From: Escherichia coli
GTDB lineage: Bacteria > Pseudomonadota > Gammaproteobacteria > Enterobacterales > Enterobacteriaceae
Length of the DNA: 64,000 nt
NCBI RefSeq assembly: GCF_030384885.1
Contig: NZ_CP128613.1
Reading direction: 5' to 3' (one strand)
Shown one piece after another: positions 3,917 to 35,995 of this stretch. The position numbers were made by a program, and so were the translations under genes. The number at the start of each line of letters is the position of its first letter. Position 1 is the first letter of the stretch. Below the pieces are notes generated by a model. That model was not told the DNA's origin, searched no databases, and saw only the letters and a program-made list of their open reading frames with translations.

Positions 3917-4774
3917 ATGTTGTACCTGACGAAAATACGCAATGCAGAAAGTGAATTTACCGAGAACGAGCAAAAAATAGCTGACTTTCTGCAGGCTAAA
4001 GTGAGTGAGCTGAAATCCGTCTCTTCGCGCAAGATGGCGAAACAGCTCGGCATCAGCCAGTCGAGTATTGTGAAGTTTGCCCAAAAGCTCGGCGCGCAAG
4101 GATTTACTGAATTGCGTATGGCGTTAATTGGCGAATACAGTGCCAGCCGGGAGAAAACGAATGCCACGGCGCTGCACTTGCACAGTTCGATTACCAGTGA
4201 CGATTCGCTGGAAGTGATTGCCCGTAAACTGAATCGCGAAAAAGAGCTGGCACTGGAGCAAACCTGCGCCTTACTCGATTACGCGCGGCTGCAAAAAATC
4301 ATTGAGGTCATCAGTAAAGCGCCGTTTATCCAGATAACAGGCCTGGGCGGGTCGGCGCTGGTGGGGCGCGATCTTTCATTCAAACTGATGAAAATTGGTT
4401 ATCGCGTGGCCTGTGAAGCCGACACGCACGTACAAGCTACCGTTTCCCAGGCGTTGAAAAAAGGTGATGTACAAATCGCTATCTCTTACAGCGGCAGTAA
4501 AAAAGAGATTTTGCTATGCGCCGAGGCAGCGCGAAAGCAGGGGGCAACGGTGATTGCCATTACTTCACTGACTGACTCTCCGCTGCGGCGGTTGGCACAT
4601 TTCACCCTCGATACCGTTTCTGGTGAAACCGAATGGCGTAGCTCGTCGATGTCCACCCGCACGGCACAAAATTCGGTTACCGATTTACTGTTTGTTGGGC
4701 TGGTACAACTTAATGATGTCGAGTCATTGAAAATGATTGAGCGCAGCAGTGAGCTAACGCAACGCCTGAAATGA
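3917..4774 (+). CDS. murR: RpiR/SIS-family transcriptional repressor of murQP
   Basis: Track ORF 3662..4774 trimmed to ATG at 3917 ([14 protein letters not shown]...), giving 285 aa; divergent from murQ. Confidence 0.8.
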
Positions 4775-4902
4775 TGCATAAAGCAGCGACTGGATTGAGA
4801 TTTTCCTGAATTAGTGAGCTGATCCGCAGCAATATTTTGTTTATCCTGTATTTTCAGAGGGAATGGAGTGTAACGCTCTGTATTAACAAGGAGAGCATTA
4901 AA

Positions 4903-5694
4903 ATGGGTAAACTCACGGGCAAGACAGCACTGATTACGGGCGCATTGCAGGGAATTGGCGAAGGAATTGCCAGAACTTTTGCGCGTCATGGCGCAAACCT
5001 AATCTTGCTGGATATCTCCCCTGAGATCGAAAAGCTGGCGGACGAACTGTGTGGTCGTGGTCATCGCTGTACGGCGGTTGTCGCCGATGTGCGTGACCCG
5101 ACGTCGGTAGCCGCAGCTATCAAGCGCGCAAAGGAAAAAGAAGGGCGCATTGATATCCTGGTGAATAACGCAGGCGTTTGTCGTCTGGGCAGTTTCCTCG
5201 ATATGAGCGATGAAGATCGCGATTTCCATATTGATATCAATATAAAAGGCGTATGGAACGTCACGAAGGCGGTGCTGCCGGAGATGATTGCCCGCAAAGA
5301 TGGTCGCATTGTGATGATGTCTTCGGTCACTGGCGATATGGTGGCCGATCCGGGCGAAACGGCGTATGCCTTAACGAAAGCGGCGATTGTTGGCCTGACT
5401 AAATCGCTGGCGGTGGAGTACGCGCAGTCTGGTATTCGCGTTAACGCAATCTGCCCTGGATACGTTCGCACGCCAATGGCTGAAAGCATTGCCCGCCAGT
5501 CGAATCCGGAAGATCCAGAATCGGTGCTGACTGAAATGGCGAAAGCAATCCCGCTGCGTCGCCTCGCCGATCCGCTGGAAGTCGGCGAACTGGCGGCCTT
5601 CCTCGCATCCGATGAATCCAGCTATTTAACCGGTACACAGAATGTGATTGATGGCGGCAGCACACTGCCGGAGACGGTTAGCGTCGGCATCTGA
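4903..5694 (+). CDS. ucpA: Short-chain dehydrogenase/reductase (SDR) oxidoreductase
   Basis: Track ORF trimmed to ATG at 4903 preceded by aaggagag RBS; TGxxxGxG Rossmann motif (TGALQGIG); 263 aa. Confidence 0.75.
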   Translation: MGKLTGKTALITGALQGIGEGIARTFARHGANLILLDISPEIEKLADELCGRGHRCTAVVADVRDPTSVAAAIKRAKEKEGRIDILVNNAGVCRLGSFLDMSDEDRDFHIDINIKGVWNVTKAVLPEMIARKDGRIVMMSSVTGDMVADPGETAYALTKAAIVGLTKSLAVEYAQSGIRVNAICPGYVRTPMAESIARQSNPEDPESVLTEMAKAIPLRRLADPLEVGELAAFLASDESSYLTGTQNVIDGGSTLPETVSVGI

Positions 5695-5997
5695 TTCACC
5701 TCTGTTTCCTCCCTGCATGTGTGGGGAGGATTTCGTCTTGAACTAAGTTCACCAGGCTATTTTATTTGTCATTTTGGCCCCGGGCAGTGCTCGAAATCCT
5801 CACGTACTATGTGTACGCTCCGGTTTCTCCGCGCTGTTCGTGTCCAAACTGACTGCAACAATTACGCCTGTTGAACCAAGTTCTTATTCCCTTTTCAACT
5901 TCCAAATCACCAAACGGTATATAAAACCGTTACTCCTTTCACGTCCGTTATAAATATGATGACTAATAGAAAGTCATTTAATTAATAAGGGTGCGCA

Positions 5998-7014
5998 ATG
6001 GCCGTTAACTTACTGAAAAAGAACTCACTCGCGCTGGTCGCTTCTCTGCTGCTGGCGGGCCATGTACAGGCAACGGAACTGCTGAACAGTTCTTATGACG
6101 TCTCCCGCGAGCTCTTTGCCGCCCTGAATACCCCGTTTGAGCAACAATGGGCGAAAGATAACGGTGGCGACAAGCTAACGATTAAACAATCTCATGCCGG
6201 GTCATCAAAACAGGCGCTGGCGATTTTGCAGGGCTTAAAAGCAGACGTTGTCACTTATAACCAGGTGACCGACGTGCAGATCCTGCATGATAAAGGCAAG
6301 CTGATCCCGGCTGACTGGCAGTCGCGCCTGCCGAATAACAGCTCGCCGTTTTACTCCACCATGGGCTTCCTGGTGCGAAAGGGCAACCCGAAGAATATCC
6401 ATGACTGGAACGATCTGGTGCGCTCCGACGTGAAGCTGATTTTCCCGAACCCAAAAACCTCCGGTAACGCGCGTTATACCTATCTGGCGGCATGGGGTGC
6501 AGCGGATAAAGCCGACGGTGGCGACAAAGCCAAAACCGAACAGTTTATGACTCAGTTCCTGAAAAACGTGGAAGTGTTCGATACCGGCGGTCGTGGCGCG
6601 ACCACTACTTTTGCCGAGCGCGGGCTGGGCGATGTGCTGATTAGCTTCGAATCGGAAGTGAACAACATCCGCAAGCAGTATGAAGCGCAGGGCTTTGAAG
6701 TGGTGATTCCGAAAACCAACATTCTGGCGGAATTCCCGGTAGCGTGGGTCGATAAAAACGTGCAGGCCAACGGTACGGAAAAAGCGGCAAAAGCTTACCT
6801 GAACTGGCTCTACAGCCCACAGGCGCAAACGATCATTACCGATTATTACTACCGCGTGAATAACCCGGAAGTCATGGACAAACTGAAAGACAAATTCCCG
6901 CAGACCGAGCTGTTTCGCGTGGAAGATAAATTTGGCTCCTGGCCGGAAGTGATGAAAACCCACTTCAACAGCGGCGGCGAGTTAGACAAGCTGTTAGCGG
7001 CGGGGCGTAACTAA
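5998..7014 (+). CDS. cysP: Thiosulfate/sulfate ABC transporter periplasmic binding protein
   Basis: 338-aa ORF with signal peptide; first gene of the cysPUWA(M) cluster. Confidence 0.9.
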
Positions 7015-7847
7015 TGTTTGCAGTTTCTTCCAGACGCGTGCTGCCGGGCTTTACCTTAAGCCTCGGCACCAGTCTGCTGTTTGTGTGCCTGATTTTGCTG
7101 CTGCCGCTCTCCGCACTGGTGATGCAACTGGCTCAGATGAGCTGGGCGCAGTACTGGGAGGTGATCACCAACCCGCAGGTGGTCGCGGCCTATAAAGTGA
7201 CGCTGCTGTCGGCGTTTGTGGCATCGATTTTTAACGGCGTTTTCGGCCTGCTGATGGCGTGGATTTTAACCCGCTATCGCTTTCCGGGCCGCACGCTGCT
7301 TGATGCGCTGATGGATTTACCGTTTGCGCTACCAACGGCGGTAGCAGGTTTAACGCTGGCTTCGCTCTTTTCCGTGAACGGTTTTTACGGCGAGTGGCTG
7401 GCGAAGTTTGATATCAAAGTCACCTACACCTGGCTTGGTATCGCGGTGGCGATGGCCTTTACCAGCATTCCGTTTGTGGTGCGCACCGTGCAGCCGGTGC
7501 TGGAGGAGTTGGGCCCGGAATATGAAGAAGCGGCAGAAACGCTCGGCGCAACGCGCTGGCAGAGTTTCTGCAAAGTGGTGCTGCCGGAGCTTTCTCCGGC
7601 GCTGGTGGCGGGCGTGGCGCTGTCGTTTACCCGTAGTCTCGGTGAGTTTGGTGCGGTGATTTTTATCGCCGGGAACATCGCCTGGAAGACGGAAGTGACG
7701 TCGCTGATGATTTTTGTTCGCTTACAGGAGTTTGATTACCCGGCGGCGAGCGCAATTGCTTCGGTGATCCTCGCTGCATCCCTGCTGCTGCTGTTCTCAA
7801 TTAACACTCTGCAAAGTCGCTTTGGTCGGCGTGTGGTAGGTCATTAA
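7014..7847 (+). CDS. cysU: Sulfate/thiosulfate ABC transporter permease
   Basis: 277-aa membrane ORF; start overlaps cysP stop (taATG). Confidence 0.9.
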   Translation: MFAVSSRRVLPGFTLSLGTSLLFVCLILLLPLSALVMQLAQMSWAQYWEVITNPQVVAAYKVTLLSAFVASIFNGVFGLLMAWILTRYRFPGRTLLDALMDLPFALPTAVAGLTLASLFSVNGFYGEWLAKFDIKVTYTWLGIAVAMAFTSIPFVVRTVQPVLEELGPEYEEAAETLGATRWQSFCKVVLPELSPALVAGVALSFTRSLGEFGAVIFIAGNIAWKTEVTSLMIFVRLQEFDYPAASAIASVILAASLLLLFSINTLQSRFGRRVVGH

Positions 7848-8722
7848 TGGCGGAAGTGACACAGTTGAAGCGTTATGACGCGCGCCCGATTAACTGGGGC
7901 AAATGGTTTTTGATTGGCACCGGAATGCTGGTTTCGGCGTTCATCCTGCTGGTGCCGATGATTTACATTTTCGTGCAGGCATTCAGCAAAGGGCTGATGC
8001 CGGTTTTACAGAATCTGGCTGATCCGGACATGCTACATGCCATCTGGCTAACGGTGATGATTGCGCTGATTGCCCTCCCGGTAAACCTGGTGTTCGGGAT
8101 TCTGCTGGCCTGGCTGGTGACGCGCTTTAACTTCCCCGGACGCCAGTTGCTGCTGACGCTGCTGGACATTCCGTTTGCTGTGTCGCCGGTGGTTGCCGGT
8201 CTGGTCTATCTGCTTTTCTACGGCTCTAACGGCCCGCTCGGCGGCTGGCTGGATGAACATAATCTGCAAATTATGTTCTCCTGGCCGGGAATGGTGCTGG
8301 TCACCATCTTCGTGACCTGTCCGTTTGTGGTGCGCGAGCTGGTGCCAGTGATGTTAAGCCAGGGCAGCCAGGAAGACGAAGCGGCGATTTTGCTTGGCGC
8401 GTCTGGCTGGCAGATGTTCCGGCGCGTCACGCTGCCGAACATCCGCTGGGCGCTGCTTTATGGCGTGGTGCTGACCAACGCCCGCGCGATTGGCGAGTTT
8501 GGTGCGGTGTCGGTGGTTTCCGGCTCGATTCGCGGCGAAACACTTTCGCTGCCGTTACAGATTGAATTGCTGGAGCAGGACTACAACACCGTCGGCTCCT
8601 TTACCGCCGCGGCGCTGTTGACGCTGATGGCGATTATCACCCTGTTTTTAAAGAGTATGTTGCAGTGGCGCCTGGAGAATCAGGAAAAACGCGCGCAACA
8701 GGAGGAACATCATGAGCATTGA
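7847..8722 (+). CDS. cysW: Sulfate/thiosulfate ABC transporter permease
   Basis: 291-aa membrane ORF; start overlaps cysU stop. Confidence 0.9.
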
Positions 8723-9864: not shown

Positions 9865-9885
9865 ATGGCAAGGTTTTGTAACCTG

Positions 9886-9920
9886 TAGGCCTGATAAGAC
9901 GGTAAACGTCGCATCAGGCA
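9886..9920. repeat. REP (repetitive extragenic palindrome) element
   Basis: gcctgataagacg...cgtcgcatcaggc palindromic REP-type sequence in the cysA-cysM spacer. Confidence 0.5.
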
Positions 9921-9942: not shown

Positions 9943-10854
9943 GTGAGTACATTAGAACAAACAATAGGCAATACGCCTCTGGTGAAATTACAACGAATGG
10001 GGCCGGATAACGGCAGTGAAGTGTGGTTAAAGCTGGAAGGCAATAATCCAGCCGGTTCGGTGAAAGATCGTGCGGCGCTTTCGATGATCGTCGAGGCGGA
10101 AAAGCGCGGGGAAATTAAACCGGGTGATGTGTTAATCGAAGCCACCAGTGGTAACACCGGGATTGCGCTGGCAATGATTGCCGCGCTAAAAGGCTATCGC
10201 ATGAAATTGCTGATGCCCGATAACATGAGCCAGGAGCGTCGCGCGGCGATGCGTGCCTACGGTGCGGAGCTGATTCTGGTCACCAAAGAGCAGGGCATGG
10301 AAGGCGCGCGCGATCTGGCGCTGGAAATGGCAAATCGTGGGGAAGGCAAGCTGCTCGATCAGTTCAACAATCCCGATAATCCCTATGCACATTACACCAC
10401 CACCGGGCCGGAAATCTGGCAGCAAACCGGCGGTCGCATTACCCATTTTGTCTCCAGCATGGGGACGACCGGTACGATTACCGGTGTGTCGCGCTTTATG
10501 CGCGAGCAATCCAAATCGGTGACCATTGTCGGCCTGCAGCCGGAAGAGGGCAGCAGCATTCCCGGCATTCGTCGCTGGCCTGAGGAATATCTGCCAGGCA
10601 TCTTCAACGCTTCGCTGGTGGATGAGGTGCTGGATATTCATCAGCGCGATGCGGAAAACACCATGCGCGAACTGGCAGTGCGGGAAGGGATTTTCTGCGG
10701 TGTAAGTTCCGGCGGCGCGGTTGCCGGAGCACTGCGGGTGGCAAAAGCCAACCCCGGCGCTGTAGTGGTGGCGATCATCTGCGATCGCGGCGATCGCTAC
10801 CTTTCTACCGGGGTGTTTGGGGAAGAGCACTTTAGTCAGGGGGCGGGGATTTAA
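9943..10854 (+). CDS. cysM: Cysteine synthase B (O-acetylserine sulfhydrylase B)
   Basis: 303-aa ORF beginning GTG (MSTLEQTIGNTPLVKL...), PLP lysine motif region. Confidence 0.9.
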   Translation: MSTLEQTIGNTPLVKLQRMGPDNGSEVWLKLEGNNPAGSVKDRAALSMIVEAEKRGEIKPGDVLIEATSGNTGIALAMIAALKGYRMKLLMPDNMSQERRAAMRAYGAELILVTKEQGMEGARDLALEMANRGEGKLLDQFNNPDNPYAHYTTTGPEIWQQTGGRITHFVSSMGTTGTITGVSRFMREQSKSVTIVGLQPEEGSSIPGIRRWPEEYLPGIFNASLVDEVLDIHQRDAENTMRELAVREGIFCGVSSGGAVAGALRVAKANPGAVVVAIICDRGDRYLSTGVFGEEHFSQGAGI

Positions 10855-10856
10855 GA

Positions 10857-11225
10857 TTATTGTGCAGGCACCGTTTTATCCGTCTGCGCAATTAAAGCAT
10901 GTAAAAAAGGTTGCGCGTTTTCATCGCTCTTACCGGGCATCTTCACGATATACGGCTTCCCGGTAATCGATGATGACGAAGCAACCTTATCAATAAATTG
11001 CTCAGCAGTATCAATACGATTACGGGTATTGCCCAGCTTCAGACGCAAATGGGAAACCGCTTCATCGCAGGTATGTTCATCGCCGTTGCGCACAAATATC
11101 AAATCCTTTTTCTGTGCTAATCCCTCCAGCATGGCGTTGATGCGGGCTTCTTCGTGGGCGGTTAACTTCGCGTAAGCGGGGAGTGTCATTAGCAGCGTAA
11201 TGACCAGACAAATGATTTTCTTCAT
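10857..11225 (-). CDS. yfeK: Secreted protein of unknown function
   Basis: 122-aa ORF with N-terminal signal peptide; convergent with cysM with only a 2-nt gap. Confidence 0.65.
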
Positions 11226-11250
11226 TGAATTACCTTATCCTTGTTTTGTG

Positions 11251-11316
<66 letters not shown>

Positions 11317-11329
11317 GAGAAAAAATTAA

Positions 11330-12181
11330 ATGAGTAGTTTGTTGTTGTTTAACGATAAGAGCAGGGCATTGCAGGCGGATATCGTCGCCGTGCAGTCGCA
11401 GGTAGTGTACGGCAGCGTAGGCAACAGCATTGCCGTGCCTGCTATCAAACAGAACGGCCTGAATGTCTTTGCCGTGCCGACGGTATTGCTGAGCAATACG
11501 CCGCATTATGACACTTTCTACGGTGGTGCGATTCCGGACGAATGGTTTAGCGGTTATTTGCGTGCGCTTCAGGAGCGTGATGCGCTGCGCCAGCTGCGCG
11601 CTGTCACCACGGGCTATATGGGAACGGCATCGCAAATCAAAATCCTTGCCGAGTGGCTGACTGCGCTACGCAAAGACCATCCTGACTTATTGATTATGGT
11701 CGATCCGGTGATTGGCGATATTGATAGCGGAATTTATGTCAAACCTGACCTTCCTGAGGCATACCGACAATATTTACTGCCTCTGGCGCAGGGTATTACG
11801 CCTAATATCTTTGAGCTGGAAATCCTGACCGGTAAAGATTGCCGCGATCTCGACAGCGCCATTGCTGCCGCAAAAAGTCTGCTTTCAGACACATTAAAAT
11901 GGGTGGTGATTACCAGTGCCTCCGGTAACGAAGAAAATCAGGAGATGCAGGTGGTGGTGGTCAGTGCCGACAGCGTGAATGTCATTTCCCATTCTCGGGT
12001 AAAGACGGATCTTAAAGGAACAGGCGATCTGTTTTGCGCCCAGCTTATCAGTGGCTTGTTGAAAGGTAAGGAATTAACTGACGCGGTACATAGCGCGGGA
12101 TTACGCGTGCTGGAGGTGATGCGCTATACCCAGCAGCATGGTAGTGATGAATTGATTTTGCCGCCGCTGACTGAAGCATAA
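11330..12181 (+). CDS. pdxK: Pyridoxal/pyridoxine/pyridoxamine kinase
   Basis: 283-aa ribokinase-fold ORF recognised as PdxK; convergent with crr. Confidence 0.85.
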
Positions 12182-15186: not shown

Positions 15187-16158
15187 TTACTGTTGCAATT
15201 CTTTCTCAGTGAAGAGATCGGCAAACAATGCGGTGCTTAAATAACGCTCACCCGATGACGGTAGAATAACCACAATATTCTTGTTGGTAAAGCTTTCATC
15301 TTCTTGTAGTTTCAACGCTGCAGCAACAGCCGCTCCAGAAGAGATACCTGCAAGAATACCTTCCTCTTCCATCAGACGACGCGCGGTAGAAATAGCTTCT
15401 TCATTGGTGATGCCAATGACTTTATCGACCAGTTTGAGATCAAGGTTAGCCGGGATAAAACCAGCGCCAATCCCCTGAATTTTATGCGGGCCAGGTTTAA
15501 TCTCTTCACCTGCCAGCGCCTGGGCGATAACCGGAGAATCGGTTGGCTCCACGGCGACAGAGATGAGATCAGTCTTGCCTTTGGTGCCTTTAATGTAGCG
15601 GCTGACGCCGGTCAGCGTACCGCCAGTCCCAACACCAGCAATAAATACATCAACCTGACCGTCGGTATCTTCCCAGATCTCCGGACCGGTGGTTTTTTCG
15701 TGAATTTCAGGGTTTGCCGGATTGCTGAATTGTTGCAGCAGTAGGTATTTCTCTGGATTGCTGGCGACAATTTCTTCTGCTTTTTGGATTGCGCCTTTCA
15801 TGCCTTTAGCACCTTCGGTCAGCACCAGGTTTGCACCTAACGCTTTCAGCAGCTTGCGGCGTTCAATACTCATGGTTTCTGGCATGGTCAGGGTGAGTTT
15901 GTAACCGCGAGCGGCAGCCACATAGGCCAGTGCAATCCCGGTATTACCGCTGGTTGGTTCAACCAGTTCAACGCCTGGTTTCAGCACGCCGCGCTTTTCG
16001 GCATCCCAAATCATGTTGGCACCGATACGGCACTTAACGCTGAAGCTGGGGTTACGGGATTCCACCTTCGCCAGAATGCGTCCGTTACCGATGCGATTCA
16101 GGCGAACCAGCGGCGTGTGACCGATAGTCAGCGAGTTATCTTCAAAAATCTTACTCAT
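15187..16158 (-). CDS. cysK: Cysteine synthase A (O-acetylserine sulfhydrylase A)
   Basis: 323-aa PLP-dependent ORF recognised as CysK. Confidence 0.95.
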
Positions 16159-26987: not shown

Positions 26988-27017
26988 ATGAGAGGCACGG
27001 GAACTGCCGGACATAGT

Positions 27018-27044
27018 TGGTCTGATAAGCGAAGCGCATCAGGC
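27018..27044. repeat. REP-like palindrome
   Basis: ctgataagcgaagcgcatcag palindromic sequence typical of REP elements. Confidence 0.4.
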
Positions 27045-27057
27045 AATTTCGCAAATT

Positions 27058-32935: not shown

Positions 32936-32996
32936 CAGGCGTAAAAAAAGCAGGGAATTATCCCCGGCTTTTGTGGCTGATGACAAACAGAAAAAT

Positions 32997-33025
32997 GCCT
33001 GATGCGCTACGCTTATCAGGCCTAC
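32997..33025. repeat. REP element
   Basis: gcctgatgcgctacgcttatcaggcctac, classic REP palindrome, flanked on both sides by hairpin-T-tract terminators. Confidence 0.55.
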
Positions 33026-33037
33026 ATGGAATTGAAG

Positions 33038-33055
33038 CCGGGGAATTATCCCCGG
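33038..33055. other. Palindrome ccGGGGaattatCCCCgg matching the GGGG(N6)CCCC target preference of IS186; unoccupied here
   Basis: Sequence read directly; a degenerate copy GGG-aattat-CCCC lies at about 32953..32965. Confidence 0.5.
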
Positions 33056-35854: not shown

Positions 35855-35882
35855 TTCAACTGGCGTCGTACCAGGCATCACT

Positions 35883-35971
35883 GGCGGATGCGGCGTAAAA
35901 CGCCTCATCCGCCCTACGCGTTAAAGAGACGGTTTGTAGGCCTGATAAGACGCACTAGCGTCGCATCAGGC
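35883..35971. repeat. Pair of REP elements (BIME-like)
   Basis: ggcggatgcggcgtaaaacgcctcatccgcc and gcctgataagacgcactagcgtcgcatcaggc palindromes between mntH and ypeC. Confidence 0.5.
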
Positions 35972-35995
35972 ATTGTGCTCCATTGGCGAATGTGT

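Follow-up and report, generated by a model that had tools for sequence, protein, structure and literature searches.

The closest described arrangement of this locus is that of Escherichia coli K-12. In MG1655 the genes follow one another in the order pdxK, yfeK (b2419, 124 aa), yfeS (b2420, 244 aa) and cysM (b2421). The 952-bp unit that contains yfeS places this gene behind yfeK in one sigma-E-driven operon, for which a sigma-24 promoter, yfeKp, is given, and boric-acid sensitivity has been reported as a yfeS phenotype in K-12 (PMC11502571). The only recognisable feature of K-12 YfeS is a WGR domain at residues 9-71 (PF05406, E = 6e-18). A PDB sequence search with YfeS returned only 2ra8, the WGR domain of an uncharacterised Bacteroides protein, and PADLOC assigned neither YfeS nor YfeK to a defence system (0 families for each). 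Two more general arrangements are comparable as well: convergent gene pairs that end at a bidirectional intrinsic terminator, and the accessory-gene hotspots between core genes of Enterobacteriaceae.

The window, by which we mean the whole stretch of 64,000 nucleotides analysed here, is collinear with K-12 from 2,549,441 to 2,484,000 over its full 64 kb with 94.6-96.2% identity. The flanking genes, their order and their orientation are common to both. In contrast to K-12, the window lacks the 952-bp unit with yfeS and its REP pair, the two stop codons are separated by 2 bp and not by 955 bp, and YfeK has 122 aa ending in PAQ* as opposed to 124 aa ending in PAEGN*. Only two large indels distinguish the sequences over 63 kb, the yfeS unit and IS186C. 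The latter is a 1.3-kb element between nupC and pdeA in K-12, where the window has only about 76 bp (32964-33041).

The cysM-yfeK junction in the window

The features of the junction are the following.

9943..10854, plus strand: cysM (cysteine synthase B), 303 aa, GTG start, TAA stop at 10852-10854 (ORF list)
10855..10856: the entire cysM-yfeK intergenic gap, 'GA', 2 bp (direct sequence reading)
10855..10863: unoccupied yfeS site; the cassette replaces 'ATTATTG' (10856-10862) in yfeS-carrying genomes (junction comparison)
10857..11225, minus strand: yfeK, 122 aa, TAA stop read as 'tta' at 10857-10859 (ORF list)
11330..12181, plus strand: pdxK, divergent from yfeK and bounding the locus (ORF list and annotation in 2013C-4282)

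A first-pass annotation of this DNA had placed the cysM stop at 10852..10854 and the yfeK stop at 10857..10859 with 2 nt in between, and these coordinates are exact both in the sequence and in the ORF list. CysM of the window is 98.7% identical to K-12 CysM over 303 aa, that is over its full length. cysM is the last gene of the cysPUWAM operon, with the order cysP-T-W-A-M annotated in a record that is 99.9% identical to the window; high full-length identity to K-12 and the position after cysA together define the gene as cysM. YfeK is a DUF5329 protein (PF17263, 108.7 bits against a cut-off of 27, E = 1.8e-31, Pfam) with a signal-peptide-like N-terminus and the C-terminus ...TVPAQ*, and it is 96.7% identical to K-12 YfeK over 122 aa. 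Identical relative coordinates of cysM and yfeK are annotated by PGAP in 2013C-4282, O157:H7 Z852, N1131 and 2020CK-00188. In Z852, yfeK is annotated as a frameshifted pseudogene (2058-2425 of the retrieved locus), and the match is 1 base shorter than the query.

The window thus carries the empty allele, characterised by the contiguous sequence TAA-GA-TTA and a 122-aa YfeK that ends in (P/S)AQ*. The K-12-type arrangement, with a yfeS ORF of about 244 aa encoding a WGR protein between yfeK and cysM, is not present. With K-12 YfeS as the tblastn query, no YfeS-like ORF could be detected within the 64-kb window (best E = 2.3). The first-pass annotation had expected a yfeS gene in the yfeK-cysM neighbourhood of K-12 and was right to do so: MG1655 carries yfeS between the two genes, and its 955 bp between the stops rule out that K-12 has the same 2-bp abutment, the observation that would have spoken against this expectation.

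Empty and occupied alleles

The yfeS unit of 952 bp has the 8-bp repeat ATTAATCC at each edge, with the copies 952 bp apart (repeat family D6). It contains a ribosome-binding site, yfeS, a hairpin after yfeS and two REP palindromes, which form a REP pair. The hairpin after yfeS is complete in EC6563 and in a clade-I-like strain, and 16 bp shorter in K-12 and Pseudocitrobacter. For the K-12 unit, we could detect neither a transposase nor an integrase, its sole ORF product being the WGR-domain protein, nor an inverted repeat that pairs the two ends of the unit. The REP pair in the yfeS-cysM spacer of K-12 has REP-like matches in the window at 9880-9920, 27016-27052, 32977-33029 and 35882-35973, one of them in the cysA-cysM intergenic region.

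The empty allele reads ...GGGGATTTAA-GA-TTATTG(T/C)GCAG.... The occupied allele reads ...GGGGATTTAAG-GATTAAT-AGC... on the cysM side and ...GCG-GATTAAT-TTCCTTCCGCAG... on the yfeK side. Occupation substitutes 7 bp of the empty site and replaces the last two yfeK codons. The two alleles are discrete, with the YfeK tail always linked to the occupancy state: YfeK ends in PAEGN* wherever the site is occupied (PAKGN* in EC6563) and in PAQ* or SAQ* where it is empty. That the YfeK C-terminus varies with occupancy is a modest but useful point. The first-pass annotation had proposed a clean presence/absence difference at this junction. Presence and absence are real; the difference is not perfectly clean, as 7 bp are replaced and the C-terminus of YfeK is altered.

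The boundaries of the unit are identical in E. coli K-12, EC6563, the clade-I-like strain and Pseudocitrobacter, and ATTAATCC is kept at both edges in these four genomes. The empty site has a similar single copy, AATAATC. In the occupied allele, an extra 6-7 bp (the EGN codons) lie between the conserved yfeK sequence and the repeat.

Frequency of the two states in E. coli

Counted at a threshold of at least 95% DNA identity, yfeS DNA is present in 1387 of 5426 complete E. coli genomes (about 26%); derivatives of K-12 and strains of the B type are among them. With a 100-bp query that spans an E. coli empty junction and has it at its centre, the contiguous empty junction is found in at least 3986 of the same 5426 genomes (about 73%). 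The compact 2-bp form is seen in the window, N1131, O157 Z852, 2020CK-00188 and the E. coli GTDB representative. In E. coli, the majority of genomes show the abutment, and K-12 represents the minority state. The expectation of yfeS at this position, with which the first-pass annotation had approached the junction, holds for K-12 itself and reverses the situation in the species, where K-12 belongs to the 1387 of 5426. We conclude that the finding is real but ordinary. It is an accessory-gene presence/absence polymorphism, already known in kind, in which K-12 is the unusual strain. For about three quarters of E. coli, yfeS phenotypes reported in K-12, such as boric-acid sensitivity, do not apply.

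The median number of yfeS places per E. coli genome is one, and yfeS was found at no other locus. The single plasmid copy of yfeS is a frameshift-ridden copy of the chromosomal region. It is located on the 50-kb 'plasmid' pZ0117EC0005-3 (NZ_CP098226.1), which reads cysW-cysA-cysM-yfeS-yfeK-pdxK-crr-ptsI-ptsH-cysK-cysZ with every gene annotated as frameshifted. We rejected it as a genuine yfeS plasmid; this frameshifted cys-pts copy is probably an assembly artefact or a low-quality duplicate of a chromosomal contig. On genuine plasmid or phage records YfeS was not found, the matches there being distant or partial WGR matches. Two insertion sequences were observed at the occupied site: IS1A lies inside yfeS in E. 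coli LR-03, and E. coli GF4-3 has an IS3-family element between its cysM and yfeS genes (6711-8059 of the retrieved locus).

Strain 2013C-4282 and clade I-type relatives

The window is 99.9-99.98% identical to E. coli 2013C-4282 (NZ_CP027579.1), which is among the completely sequenced strains of Escherichia cryptic clade I (PMC10100065). The annotation of this record is identical to that of the window, with the cysM end at 15355 and the yfeK start at 15358, and no difference of note was found. 2013C-4282 is in effect the strain from which the window comes, or else very closely related to it. The first-pass annotation had called for a search for yfeS elsewhere in the genome. We used a chimeric query of the junction region and K-12 yfeS in unnatural relative orientation (blastn, 'distant' mode). 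It found one place only on the 2013C-4282 chromosome, the junction, so that no yfeS-like DNA is detected on NZ_CP027579.1. Across all records, only 3 places matched by this query were on plasmids. That a cryptic clade I strain lacks yfeS does not call for a special explanation.

In 18 chromosomes, the cysM-yfeK allele has at least 97% identity to that of the window; yfeS is present in 12 of them, and the site is empty in 6. One empty/occupied pair in this window-like group is near-isogenic, with 1 base of difference in yfeK and 6 in cysM, and it shows the same cassette boundaries as the comparison of the window, N1131 and O157 with K-12. As empty and occupied alleles are nearly identical in their flanks, the polymorphism segregates even on the window's own flanking haplotype.

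Origin of the yfeS unit

Outgroup loci were retrieved with YfeK and comprise twelve loci from eleven other enterobacterial species, with Salmonella and Klebsiella not among them. The spacing between yfeK and cysM compares as follows.

E. coli GTDB representative: 2-bp gap
Pseudocitrobacter faecalis: 2-bp gap
Enterobacteriaceae UBA5654: 1-bp gap
Escherichia sp. E1V33: 12-bp overlap
Citrobacter amalonaticus, Superficieibacter sp. and Entomohabitans: 31-57 bp gap

In Escherichia sp. E1V33, the cysM stop TGA is at 1417-1419 and the yfeK stop at 1426-1428 of the retrieved locus, and the 3' ends overlap by 12 bp (1417-1428). The junction can therefore be tighter still than that of the window.

The base composition of yfeS differs from that of its surroundings. 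yfeS has a GC content of 39.2% and a GC3 of 36.7%, compared to 56.5% and 61.8% for cysM and 52.2% and 58.8% for pdxK; overall, the flanks of the unit have 52-58% GC versus 39% for yfeS. An uncultured Pseudocitrobacter sp. MAG carries yfeS (4408-5142 of the retrieved locus) at the same site and with the same edges as K-12. Between K-12 and this MAG, DNA identity is 95.9% for yfeS, 89.6% for cysM and 80.5% for yfeK. Between K-12 and the clade-I-like occupied allele, the corresponding values are 97.1%, 93.6% and 94.1%. Judged by sequence divergence, the yfeS cassette is younger than its flanks, and the contrast between yfeS and yfeK in the Pseudocitrobacter MAG points to transfer of the cassette between genera. 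Different constraint could contribute slightly to the higher conservation of yfeS over yfeK, although the amino acid changes in YfeS are many relative to its nucleotide changes. One long BLAST segment had suggested that the cassette diverged in step with its flanks; this was rejected by the gene-by-gene comparison, in which yfeS is clearly less diverged. Outside a tight enterobacterial cluster, the nearest relatives of YfeS are 40-65% identical and come from Paenibacillus, Dysgonomonas, Clostridium and Fusobacterium.

Outgroup spacing, composition, relative age and relatives of yfeS together lead to the view that a foreign gene was acquired at the junction and later exchanged between lineages. 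We conclude, with a probability of about 0.82, that cysM and yfeK converge with their 3' ends on a small insertion site which is unoccupied in the window, and that the yfeS unit is a horizontally acquired cassette. To lack yfeS is the common and probably the original state in E. coli. The empty form would be ancestral for Escherichia; yfeS was presumably acquired once from a low-GC donor and may then have passed between enterobacterial lineages as a whole allele, through homologous recombination in the conserved flanks. K-12 cannot serve as a neutral reference for yfeK-cysM, where yfeS is strain-variable and horizontally acquired.

A different history would have yfeS present in the ancestors of the window strain and then lost, through a deletion or because recombination with another Escherichia replaced it by an empty allele. 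Clade-I-type flanks that are nearly identical do accompany both states, a deletion could have used the 8-bp direct repeats that border the cassette, and yfeS is shown to be dispensable by the IS1 within it in LR-03 and the IS3 next to it in GF4-3. The empty junction (TAAGATTATTG...), however, is not the product that recombination between the repeats would leave. A query built as the ATTAATCC-repeat recombination product gave a best full-length match of 93.2% in the 5426 genomes, which is the ordinary empty allele. As its predicted product is absent from all 5426 genomes, a deletion between the 8-bp repeats was rejected as the origin of the empty allele. Further arguments against loss are the identical empty junction in another genus and the foreign composition of yfeS, which is also younger than its flanks. 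We regard this history as unlikely overall. The ancestral emptiness is shown at the level of the genus and does not extend to the window's own lineage. Given the near-identical flanks of the two states, this particular lineage could have had yfeS and lost it by allele replacement, a possibility that has to be reckoned with.

Other cargo at the junction

Acquisition at an insertion site, as we prefer it for yfeS, has parallels at the same junction in other species. In E. albertii NBRC 107761, a 1.8-kb insert with 34.5% GC lies between yfeK and cysM (4376-6194 of the retrieved locus). Two ORFs, with 280 and 175 aa, are encoded in it on the strand of cysM; Pfam returned nothing for them beyond a sub-threshold DKNYY match, and YfeK ends there in ...TVELKNK*. 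Citrobacter sedlakii NBRC 105722 has a 3.8-kb insert (4364-8185 of the retrieved locus) encoding proteins of 628 and 654 aa on the yfeK strand, the second with TPR matches. About 0.5 kb is found at the junction of Superficieibacter electus. The neighbourhood is also rearranged in some genera: pdxK directly adjoins cysM in Enterobacter sp. ENT03, where yfeK is divergent from cysM, and pdxK lies between yfeK and cysM in Atlantibacter sp. RC6.

Like the known accessory-gene hotspots between core genes of Enterobacteriaceae, the yfeK/cysM junction holds low-GC cargo that differs by species. Unlike them, the site is very small, has no tRNA, integrase or phage remnants, and its cargo is limited to one or two genes. 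It is conceivable, if rather improbable, that the meeting point of the two 3' ends is a cross-genus micro-hotspot that takes up unrelated low-GC cargo without a recombinase of its own and rewrites the last yfeK codons each time, and that the yfeS unit jumped between Escherichia and Pseudocitrobacter after their divergence with identical edges. If true, this would hint at targeted insertion in trans, for example linked to the REP pair or to ATTAATCC, rather than at plain homologous recombination. Such recombinase-free behaviour of the junction is only a mildly novel thread.

The yfeS unit might itself be an autonomous or mobilisable element that is site-specific for an A(A/T)TAATC(C) target and duplicates it, and not an allele moved by homologous recombination. 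The exact 8-bp repeat at both edges with identical boundaries in the four genomes, the similar single copy AATAATC in the empty site, and a cassette far more similar between genera than its flanks would all fit such an element. The unit has no transposase, integrase or terminal inverted repeats, though, and its extra 6-7 bp (EGN codons) are not predicted by a simple target duplication. The repeat is weak support by itself, since the same 1 kb contains seven further exact 8-bp repeats with two copies. In addition, yfeS is found at no other E. coli locus and is absent from genuine plasmids and phages. We consider an element of this kind improbable. The abutment as an assembly or sequencing artefact, from a collapsed or misjoined region, is refuted: thousands of genomes that were closed independently have the same junction, as do other genera, and the 63 kb that are collinear between the window and K-12 contain no more than two large indels.

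Transcript ends and promoter

The first-pass annotation had seen no room for a terminator between the two genes. This is literally true of the 2-bp gap, but a stable hairpin is formed within the last 12 codons of yfeK.

10859..10892, plus strand: hairpin with an 11-bp stem and a 12-nt loop, in the last 12 yfeK codons, starting 5 nt past the cysM stop (folding)

On the plus strand, which corresponds to the cysM mRNA, the hairpin folds with -14.4 kcal/mol (z = -3.2), compared to -8.6 kcal/mol (z = -0.8) on the minus strand. In N1131, folding predicts a strong hairpin on both strands. The hairpin arms are shared by E. coli N1131, O157, the GTDB representative and P. faecalis. Only three positions of the stem vary and all of them keep the pairing on the plus strand, which is weak evidence as it would arise by chance in 1 of 8 cases. 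In the occupied allele, the stem of the yfeK-end hairpin is cut to 7 bp.

Convergent pairs with a bidirectional intrinsic terminator likewise have a GC-rich hairpin where the two genes meet. In contrast to these, the hairpin of the window lies inside the yfeK coding sequence and is followed by a U-tract on neither strand. The stem is followed by UAAAGCAUGUAAAAAAGG on the plus strand and by AAUCUUAAAUCCCC on the minus strand. Of the two elements of an intrinsic terminator, the GC-rich stem-loop is present and the U-rich tract directly after the stem is not. The hairpin at 10859-10892 is not an intrinsic terminator because a U-tract is absent on either strand. A consensus scan of 10400-11500 detected no terminator (0 terminator-like sites) and no sigma-70 promoter, and Rfam gave no match in the same interval at a permissive E-value.

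Without intrinsic terminators, the cysM and yfeK transcripts would each run some way into the other gene. The hairpin would most likely be a structure that stabilises the 3' end of the cysPUWAM transcript, and termination at the compact junction may be Rho-dependent or simply leaky. The compact junction is a convenient natural case for transcript ending in convergent genes without an intergenic terminator.

Upstream of yfeK, a promoter-like motif is present.

11259..11286, minus strand: sigma-E-type promoter-like motif GAAACTT-N16-TCAAA, upstream of yfeK (pattern match)

K-12 has the identical motif, and a single base distinguishes the two sequences over the 104 nt upstream of yfeK. The sigma-E-type motif of the window fits the statement that a sigma-24 promoter drives yfeK-yfeS (PMC11502571).
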